Assembly: GCF_011045215.1 (NCBI RefSeq)
Contig: NZ_CP049201.1
DNA: 64,000 nt
Origin: Escherichia coli
Lineage (GTDB): Bacteria > Pseudomonadota > Gammaproteobacteria > Enterobacterales > Enterobacteriaceae
Reading direction: 5' to 3' (one strand)
Below, one piece after another: positions 60,577 to 61,635 of this stretch. The first letter of the stretch is position 1; each line of letters starts with the position of its first letter. Position numbers and translations under genes: made by a program. The notes under the pieces are model-generated. The model was given only the letters and a program-made list of their open reading frames with translations, ran no database searches and had not been told where the DNA came from.

Positions 60577-60897
60577 TTACTTATCAATGACCTGCCAGCC
60601 ATCATCCGTTTTGATCAGCCTGACAGCCGCTGTGCGTTTTTCGTTATCGACAACAGCTGTTACATTGCATTTATAGCTTTTATCCGATAGTTTTTCGCAG
60701 TCATGCTTTTTGACAGATTTTAATTCCCGCAGTGCGTCTTTCGGGACATCTTTACCTGCTATGGATTTAACGATGGCATTCGTCTGCTCCATGACCTTAT
60801 TCATCGCAGTGTAAATATCCTGCTCAGACGGTTCACCGGTACAGCCACTCAGCAAAAAAATGGACGCAATGAGTGTGGTAAATGCATATGTTTTCAT
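60577..60897 (-). CDS. small lipoprotein
   Basis: 106-aa ORF; signal peptide with lipobox LLSGC. Confidence 0.6.
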   Translation of the reverse strand: MKTYAFTTLIASIFLLSGCTGEPSEQDIYTAMNKVMEQTNAIVKSIAGKDVPKDALRELKSVKKHDCEKLSDKSYKCNVTAVVDNEKRTAAVRLIKTDDGWQVIDK

Positions 60898-60923
60898 AAA
60901 ATAATCCCAGACTGTAGAGTACG

Positions 60924-61310
60924 TTATTGAATAAGGCCGGTTTTCATCTTGCTGTTGTTTTCAGAGATCGTCCACTTACTGACCGTTTCGCCTTTAAATT
61001 CGATTTCCAGCGTTTTGGCCTGCGTCTGTGAACCGCCTGTCAGCAACCCGACCACTGGAATGAATGTGGTGGCATCAAACTGATTGTTATCCATCGAATA
61101 AGTCCATTCTTCATTGCCACTATCAAGTGTAGTTTTGGTTTCGGGCTCACCTAATGCGGTAATGATTTCTGATTTCGTTGTTTTATTTTTTATAATTTTC
61201 GACTGCAGACTTTGTGCTGTTTCTTTTTTTAGATGCTGGTTGCCTGATGTTGAACAACCAGAAATAAGGAAAGCAGAAATAAAAAACACAGAAATCATGA
61301 ATCTGTTCAT
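60924..61310 (-). CDS. small lipoprotein
   Basis: ORF 60924..61322; signal peptide MNRFMISVFFISAFLISGC with lipobox. Confidence 0.6.
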   Translation of the reverse strand: MNRFMISVFFISAFLISGCSTSGNQHLKKETAQSLQSKIIKNKTTKSEIITALGEPETKTTLDSGNEEWTYSMDNNQFDATTFIPVVGLLTGGSQTQAKTLEIEFKGETVSKWTISENNSKMKTGLIQ

Positions 61311-61359
61311 AAGTTCTCTCATATTAATTTTTTATGTTTGCGGTGGTATGAAATTAATA

Positions 61360-61635
61360 TCACCGTATAAAAACAACTCTGTCTGCATATTTCTTTTTAA
61401 TAATGCAGATAAGAATAATGACGCTGGCAAAAAACGTAATGACTGAGACAGGAGTGCTGCCGGTCAATGAAAATACTAACCAGGCGAGAGCTAATGCCAC
61501 GAATTGAAACAGGAATGCCACACTGAGCGGACTCTCACCGTAGGCGACTTTTGCATGGCAGCCTTTGCAAATCCGCACGCCGTGCGGGCTTTGTGTAAAG
61601 CAGAAGGGGCAGCTAATCGTTTTATTATCCATCAT
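61360..61635 (-). CDS. zinc-ribbon membrane protein
   Basis: 91-aa ORF; CPFC...CKGCH zinc-ribbon followed by two hydrophobic helices. Confidence 0.5.
   Translation of the reverse strand: MMDNKTISCPFCFTQSPHGVRICKGCHAKVAYGESPLSVAFLFQFVALALAWLVFSLTGSTPVSVITFFASVIILICIIKKKYADRVVFIR

Follow-up and report, generated by a model that had tools for sequence, protein, structure and literature searches.

Three small genes of an Escherichia coli chromosome, here named A, B, and C, are, by their sequence features, a conserved and separately signaled envelope operon with its own promoter-like site and terminator. They occupy positions 60577-61635 of a 64,000-nucleotide stretch of contig NZ_CP049201.1 (assembly GCF_011045215.1), hereafter the window, and lie within an integrative mobilizable element (IME), downstream of its relaxase gene. 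Because the module recurs in several islands and insertion sites with differing cargo, we assign the trio to the backbone of these islands rather than to their cargo. Position and architecture together suggest to us, tentatively, that the trio may form an envelope barrier in the resident cell against incoming DNA, which would be exclusion in a broad sense; the localization of the three proteins, a physical A-B-C partnership, and the exclusion function itself are all features that we infer from the comparisons described below.

A sequence-only reading of the window had described this region as three co-oriented genes for small envelope proteins, namely two lipoproteins and a zinc-ribbon membrane protein, and the description proved accurate. 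The three open reading frames (ORFs) have exactly the limits given there, and all lie on the minus strand: gene A at 61360-61635 (91 amino acids [aa], a predicted inner-membrane hairpin protein), gene B at 60924-61322 (a 132-aa ORF, lipoprotein), and gene C at 60577-60897 (106 aa, lipoprotein), with 37 bp separating A from B and 26 bp separating B from C. The lipoboxes are present as read (...AFLISGC in B and ...IFLLSGC in C), with the lipid-bearing cysteine invariant in both families, and A has four invariant cysteines (CPFC...CKGC) followed by two hydrophobic helices; a view of the trio as envelope proteins in one co-oriented unit is thus supported. Moreover, A, B, and C are real genes under purifying selection, because (i) full-length homologs of each ORF number from tens to hundreds, (ii) pairwise dN/dS values are low (0.08-0.19 for A, 0.06-0.19 for B, and 0.17-0.33 for C), and (iii) gene order is kept across genera. 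For B, RefSeq uses Met5 (61310), which is the probable start and gives a protein of 128 aa.

Linkage to the mobilization module was evaluated in one genome per species, where we found 11 loci with a C relative. Nine of these 11, from Kluyvera, Citrobacter, Superficieibacter, Pseudocitrobacter, Phytobacter, and Enterobacter, show the order mobC-relaxase-A-B-C followed by a convergent gene for a 141-aa protein; one of the two others is cut by a contig end. Overall, the order mobC-relaxase-A-B-C occurs in at least eight genera, in two deep relaxase clades (∼55% amino-acid identity), and at no fewer than two insertion sites. The second clade, from E. coli and Salmonella, has a relaxase of ∼49-56% identity, and its islands carry variable cargo (Kiwa, Abi_2 together with an OLD-like protein, a radical-SAM system of the Hxs type, and TacAT) and end in a P4-like integrase/AlpA/DUF6387 arrangement. 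Two further islands have the same module. One, from a metagenome, carries RexAB as cargo and has the gene of another membrane protein, of 93 aa, after C; the other, of ∼13 kb, is inserted between mutS and ygbA and carries DUF4062 and reverse-transcriptase cargo. The link to mobile elements, on which the sequence-only reading turned, therefore holds in the nine loci, the second clade, and the ∼13-kb island, and the B homologs found in the immunity regions of prophages or on conjugative plasmids also sit on mobile elements. As a separate observation, three loci of the second clade (L022-L024, 9295-14066) have two tandem tyrosine recombinases and a 624-aa gene adjoining the module, in an array that resembles the multi-integrase GInt cassettes (PMC10121019).

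The genes of the module have diverged to very different extents. A and B have diverged less than the relaxase, and C is hypervariable: inter-clade nucleotide identity is 40-65% for the mob genes, 78-83% for the promoter region of the trio, 83-92% for gene A, 68-80% for gene B, and 40-57% for gene C, and the corresponding protein identities are 53-58% for the relaxase, 81-86% for A, 67-74% for B, and 38-49% for C. In two loci in which A is 100% and B 90% identical, C is only 45% identical. Furthermore, two Superficieibacter loci carry an alternative (type-2) A allele of 53-59% identity within a module that is otherwise 75-90% identical, and the trio of strain A42 is 80-83% identical to that of the window, next to a relaxase of 57% identity. 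On these sequence comparisons, the cassette and its parts have evidently been exchanged between backbones, with C and A looking like typed alleles, and the resulting allele mosaic resembles the pattern of specificity determinants. Superficieibacter electus BP-1 carries two islands (L008 and L012), between which A is 56%, C 75%, B 85%, and the relaxase 79% identical; this double island would fit distinct specificity groups, as a single case.

The 185 bp between the relaxase stop and gene A (61636-61820, minus strand) were examined by a promoter scan and a 10-locus alignment. The scan places a promoter-like site in this control region, with a -35 element at 61775-61770 and an extended -10 element at 61752-61747, and a palindrome, TGATAG-N7-CTATCA (61732-61750), overlaps the -10 element. 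Across the 10 loci, (i) a 31-mer, CATCGATCGGTACAAGCAATTTTACTAAAGC (61692-61722), (ii) the block ATTGATCGTTTATATAGATCGATAA, and (iii) three GATC (Dam) sites are invariant; variation of the -10 element is confined to the TAnnAT class, and the conserved blocks persist where relaxase identity is 54-58%. The region had no match in Rfam, and as an RNA element it has a consensus fold of -3.6 kcal/mol with almost no covariation, so we rejected an RNA in favor of a protein-binding DNA and take the region for a regulated promoter/operator. Its binder may be a regulator of the island, the helper, or the host, or control may depend on methylation. At the other end of the trio, an intrinsic-terminator-like hairpin (60515-60553, minus strand; inverted repeat I9 with an RNA fold) begins 24 nt 3' of the C stop and consists of GGCAGGACACC...GGTGGCTCCTGCC followed by UUUUU; its fold has -20.9 kcal/mol, with a z-score of only -1.67 for a 76-nt stretch.

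Since a promoter-like site with a conserved -10 class, a palindrome resembling an operator, and a terminator all belong to the trio itself, we favor a function in the resident cell over co-expression with the transfer genes. The same signals bear on a donor-side role, in which the trio would be a transfer accessory that helps the island to use the machine of a helper by docking to it or by remodeling the envelope. We regard such a role as quite unlikely: the trio stands outside the mob operon with its separate start and stop signals, A and B are dispensable in a Rahnella island, and B occurs in phages, which do not conjugate. Furthermore, an oriT, a relaxase, and an accessory protein normally suffice for mobilizable elements.

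In a 17-sequence alignment of A, the four cysteines Cys9, Cys12, Cys23, and Cys26 are invariant, and the putative zinc ribbon is followed by a conserved YGE-P motif, by helices at residues ∼39-59 and 62-79, and by a basic C-terminal tail. The Pfam model DZR scored 17.2 bits against a cut-off of 27.3 (E 0.0058), with two CxxC knuckles present. Hydrophobic segments and the positive-inside rule predict that a helical hairpin would hold A in the inner membrane, with its putative Cys4 zinc ribbon facing the cytoplasm. Close relatives were found in Enterobacteriaceae only in our homolog search; more distant ones (31-39% identity) lie on plasmids of Klebsiella, Citrobacter, and Enterobacter, mostly of ∼31-34 kb, and in the one plasmid of this kind that we examined, the neighbors are small genes and methylases, with no adjoining lipoproteins. 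Ankyrin-repeat genes also occur on the ∼31-34-kb Klebsiella plasmids with a distant A relative.

By the rule for signal peptidase II substrates, applied to sequence (a positive n-region and a hydrophobic h-region before a lipobox [LVI][ASTVI][GAS]C), both B and C are predicted lipoproteins: the signal of B reads MNRFMISVFFISAFL-ISGC, with Ser at position +2, and that of C reads MKTYAFTTLIASIFL-LSGC, with Thr at this position. As neither has an Asp at +2, the E. coli sorting rule predicts that both would be lipid-anchored on the periplasmic side of the outer membrane.

B is 100% identical to RefSeq WP_001079016.1 (NZ_CM183658.1), a "SEN1984 family lipoprotein", and no SEN1984-named model matched it in a scan of NCBIfam release 20. 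SEN1984 itself is encoded by island ROD21 of Salmonella Enteritidis, and Phyre2 predicted a BamE-like fold for this protein (PMC10655114). The backbone of ROD21, with its MOBQ relaxase, TraD, and genes for a type IV pilus, differs from that of the present island, and SEN1984 membership says nothing on mechanism, since SEN1984 has no assigned function. An AlphaFold2 model of B (predicted local distance difference test [pLDDT] 74.7) has a fold like that of BamE or the beta-lactamase inhibitor protein (BLIP), and its structural matches were a beta-lactamase-inhibitor-like protein (9.0), BamE (8.1), the type VI secretion system (T6SS) immunity protein BtiO (7.2), and OsmE (6.7). Sequence likeness to BamE is much weaker: the Pfam BamE model PF04355 (SmpA_OmlA) scored 15.4 bits, below its cut-off of 23.2 (E 0.016), although a few members of the B family carry a precomputed PF04355 match, BLASTP detected no similarity between B and the BamE of the E. 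coli host (E 11), and a B profile reached E 0.94 with BamE in PDB and nothing significant among PDB sequences overall. B further differs from the BamE/OsmE/BLIP-like proteins in its carriage by mobile elements and in an extended hairpin with a tip motif of its own, F-[IV]-P-x-x-G, which is conserved in the family.

This predicted fold bears on two other explanations of the trio. In the first, B and C would be an orphan immunity set of periplasmic inhibitors that neutralize envelope-targeting enzymes of competitors or invaders; their targets could include T6SS effectors, toxins of the colicin type, and peptidoglycan hydrolases from phage tails or from type IV secretion systems (T4SSs), with A as an unrelated or auxiliary membrane partner; the inhibitor-like fold matches of B speak for this proposal, which we consider doubtful on the whole. 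In the second, the trio would be a moron-like fitness factor of the host envelope, in which B tunes outer-membrane biogenesis or integrity through the beta-barrel assembly machinery (BAM) or another outer-membrane protein, with effects on stress, serum survival, or colonization, like lambda Bor or the serum resistance conferred by TraT, and not on DNA entry. We hold this second explanation to be unlikely, given the undetectable similarity to host BamE and the subthreshold Pfam score; moreover, it leaves A, C, and the allele mosaic unexplained, and no phenotype of SEN1984 was reported in the literature that we searched.

B also occurs outside the islands. Among the Pfam, NCBIfam, PADLOC, and PHROG scans of A, B, and C, the sole match above threshold was that of B to phrog_3135 (E 1.3e-22), a family with no assigned function, and B homologs with 33-42% identity occur in phages and plasmids. 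In two lambdoid phages, they lie directly downstream of cI in the same orientation, a slot that we take to be the position of rexAB in lambda; in a Klebsiella phage and a phage-like plasmid, they have moron-like positions among tail genes; and 139 plasmids carry them at a distance from the transfer genes, most of these plasmids being conjugative and from Burkholderia.

C is named "cell wall-binding protein" by NCBI and has no Pfam family. Its invariant features are an E-P-S sequence after the lipid cysteine, a VKK motif, and Cys67 and Cys77, which probably form a disulfide; the model predicts one long helix on a four-stranded antiparallel sheet, a cystatin/NTF2-like fold. A comparison of this model with viral structures (Foldseek) gave none at E≤0.001, and profiles of A and of C gave nothing significant against PDB sequences. 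An exhaustive profile search returned 409 cluster representatives at E≤1e-3, all of ∼100-120 aa and including proteins from Pectobacterium and Pantoea. In Pectobacterium, the C relative adjoins a 95-aa protein with the architecture of A (zinc ribbon, two helices, and basic tail), which is 22% identical to A (pairwise E 8e-4). The pairing of a C-type lipoprotein with a small inner-membrane protein thus recurs, here with an A-like partner, and counts in favor of a joint envelope function.

Indeed, this pairing bears on whether the three genes have anything in common. They could be unrelated small genes that travel together merely through sharing the space from the relaxase to the following backbone gene, as each has been found somewhere without the others and as their evolutionary rates and allele histories differ. 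We nevertheless consider the lack of any joint function very unlikely, because the order and the short gaps are kept across ∼45% relaxase divergence and differing insertion sites, because the three genes have one promoter region and one terminator between them, and because the lipoprotein/small-membrane-protein pairing recurs in distant relatives.

We favor the envelope-barrier reading because the trio belongs to the backbone and appears to be expressed on its own, because B turns up in a phage context, because of how the alleles are structured, and because exclusion exists on other mobilizable elements. In this mechanism, the inner-membrane protein A would act together with B and C at the outer membrane; B, through its predicted BamE/BLIP-like protein-binding fold, and C, through a predicted cystatin/NTF2-like fold with its probable disulfide, would bind an envelope component of the host or of the incoming element on the periplasmic side; the DNA kept out could be that of a phage or of a related element transferred by conjugation; and the fast-evolving C, together with the alternative A alleles, would set specificity. 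The proposal of the sequence-only reading, that the trio acts in exclusion or alternatively in defense or immunity, was a reasonable one on position and architecture.

Known exclusion systems offer parallels in logic. In the F plasmid, TraS is an inner-membrane entry-exclusion protein and TraT an outer-membrane surface-exclusion lipoprotein, encoded beside traD/traI. The trio, with its predicted localization, has the same combination of a small inner-membrane protein with outer-membrane lipoproteins beside DNA-processing genes; it differs in having no sequence or profile similarity to TraS/TraT, and whereas F encodes the donor target (TraG/TraN), the island has no mating-pair genes. Among phages, T5 Llp, phi80/N15 Cor, and T4 Imm and Sp are small lipoproteins or two-helix inner-membrane proteins that are made by the resident and block DNA entry. 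The B homologs in lysogeny-expressed slots of lambdoid phages share this likeness to phage superinfection-exclusion proteins; the trio is unlike them in having no homology, and Llp was not among the structural matches. Two precedents place exclusion genes on mobilizable elements themselves (PMC11493245). Sfx, a lipoprotein that acts in surface exclusion at the outer membrane, is encoded by IncC plasmids and also by some IMEs that lack the target gene; it is expressed constitutively and is the only experimentally supported case of exclusion by IMEs (PMC11493245). Sfx has 286 aa, is unrelated in sequence to the trio, and, unlike the trio, has a known specificity partner, TraN. In ColE1, MbeD, a small protein of the mobilization region, reportedly lowers the entry of related mobilizable plasmids, with a role judged unclear (PMC11493245); we detected no similarity between MbeD and the trio.

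Several observations weigh against an envelope barrier. First, the sequence-only reading had pointed to TraT- or Eex-like families or families of unknown function, and here the searches did not support it: profiles gave no TraT, TrbK, Eex, or Exc family and no curated domain of unknown function (DUF) for A, B, or C. At E≤1, Pfam and NCBIfam had no TraT, TraS, TrbK, Eex, ExcA, or Sfx match for the three proteins, PADLOC-DB v2 yielded zero families at the same threshold, and the trio has no sequence or profile similarity to characterized exclusion or superinfection-exclusion proteins. Second, the trio is not obligate: the Rahnella island has the relaxase and C only, B occurs alone on plasmids and phages, and A-like genes occur alone on ∼31-kb Klebsiella plasmids. 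Third, the C relative of Pantoea adjoins a different small membrane protein, and its surroundings seem to be chromosomal. Fourth, Asp at +2 is the inner-membrane retention signal in E. coli, and some C homologs carry it (AGCDSEPS; L015 10001-10321, L014, and L031 7001-7339), with Asn in most others, so the localization of C may vary by lineage. Fifth, as the island is without mating-pair genes, an exclusion target such as TraG, VirB6, or TraN would belong to a helper. Finally, the inhibitor-like matches of the modeled fold would fit an immunity role equally well.

The matches with transfer, exclusion, or immunity names that did appear were confined to signal peptides. TraV was the sole transfer-named match, in the signal-peptide region and with 19 bits against a cut-off of 150. 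The PHROG family Cor (phrog_1119), the only exclusion-named family to appear, matched C with E 1.6e-4, over residues 7-40 against profile positions 7-37 of 78, a stretch made up of the signal peptide with its lipobox; matches to TraV, Cor, Lpp, and T6SS-immunity families were all discarded as signal peptides only. In the literature that we searched (SEN1984, DUF6387, mobilizable-element exclusion, and BamE-like superinfection exclusion), there was no functional study of A, B, or C and no description of the trio as a module.

A bolder proposal, improbable in our estimate, is that A-B-C would be an undescribed, allele-typed exclusion or immunity system in the backbone of defense-carrying mobilizable islands. 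The C and A alleles would then define specificity groups that decide which related islands, helpers, or phages enter; the GATC-rich promoter/operator would couple expression to the arrival of hemimethylated DNA or to a regulator shared with the helper or the host; and B would act on an outer-membrane protein or on the BAM machinery, closing an entry route.

The assignment of the island itself to the IMEs rests on a relaxase, an accessory gene, an integrase, a chromosomal site, and the absence of mating-pair genes, together with an oriT that we infer. The relaxase (61821-63050, minus strand; 409 aa) is of the MobA/VirD2 type and MOBP-like (PF03432, E 1.4e-22), with subthreshold matches to NCBIfam TraI_MobP and MbpB. 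A (Pro-Val)8 linker lies at ∼62150-62200; it varies in length among copies of the relaxase (409 against 419 aa), and the Rahnella copy has (Pro-Ala)n there. The mobC-like gene for a relaxosome accessory protein (63047-63451, minus strand) overlaps the start of the relaxase gene and is weakly NikA-like (PF21983, E 7.9e-4, under the Pfam cut-off); it accompanies the relaxase gene in all loci. Upstream of mobC, at 63528-63573 (minus strand), a perfect 9-bp inverted repeat (I8), GAGCAGATT/AATCTGCTC, is followed by the nick-like sequence CACCTATCTTA; by analogy with the layout of MOBP-type oriTs, this is probably the oriT, and other loci have an inverted repeat of different sequence at this place. 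Another candidate was a sequence resembling the nick site of RP4, CTATCCTGC, which lies where the relaxase gene ends (61811-61854), in the loop between the 9-bp repeats ATTAGTTAA and TTAACTAAT. An oriT at the relaxase 3' end or in the control region is unlikely, because this motif, which may be a coincidence, is not conserved across loci and because the canonical repeat and nick-like sequence lie upstream of mobC.

Downstream of the trio, the convergent backbone gene that normally comes after C in related islands remains as its 3' part (60117-60440, plus strand), truncated by insertion sequence (IS) elements, namely an IS21-family element (56152-58591, istA/istB-like) and an IS4-family transposase (58682-60097); 82 of the 107 aa of the remnant are 100% identical to the intact 141-aa gene of a near-identical annotated copy of the island (L001), and the gene has no Pfam family. 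The L001 copy is inserted at ssrA, with its integrase next to ssrA, and encodes a recombinase, two ParB-like genes, a type I restriction-modification system, ankyrin-repeat proteins, SIR2, DUF6387, and helix-turn-helix (HTH) regulators, with no T4SS or mating-pair genes annotated. In the window (48112-54878 and 63629-63979) and in L001, the island encodes a protein with a SIR2_2 domain and three with ankyrin repeats, along with DUF6387 and HTH regulators. Defense-carrying IMEs at the E. coli transfer-messenger RNA (tmRNA) hotspot have already been described (PMC10121019).

Among 5,426 complete E. coli genomes, 255-271 (∼5%) have the region, in each case on the chromosome; all 281 E. coli places are chromosomal and 0 are on plasmids, and a comparison with PLSDB placed it on no genuine plasmid. 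The single match there, the apparent plasmid OX345050.1 (L018), was rejected as such, since it is a 3,582-bp linear contig fragment of a chromosomal island (ankyrin gene, mobC, relaxase, and the start of A).

Islands of this type spread anti-phage defense among enteric bacteria (Kiwa, Abi/OLD, RexAB, SIR2, reverse transcriptase, and restriction-modification), and almost nothing is known of their backbone genes beyond the integrase and relaxase. As far as the searched literature shows, the trio is new as a module; the family name of B and the theme of small envelope proteins beside transfer genes were known already. If the trio were only an envelope fitness factor, the gain would be a routine annotation of three widespread hypothetical proteins, whereas the finding would gain in importance with a demonstration that exclusion depends on the allele or that the conserved GATC-rich promoter couples expression to DNA arrival. 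If exclusion is its true function, the trio would be the second case of exclusion by a non-conjugative element, and it would shape which islands, plasmids, and phages coexist in a cell.

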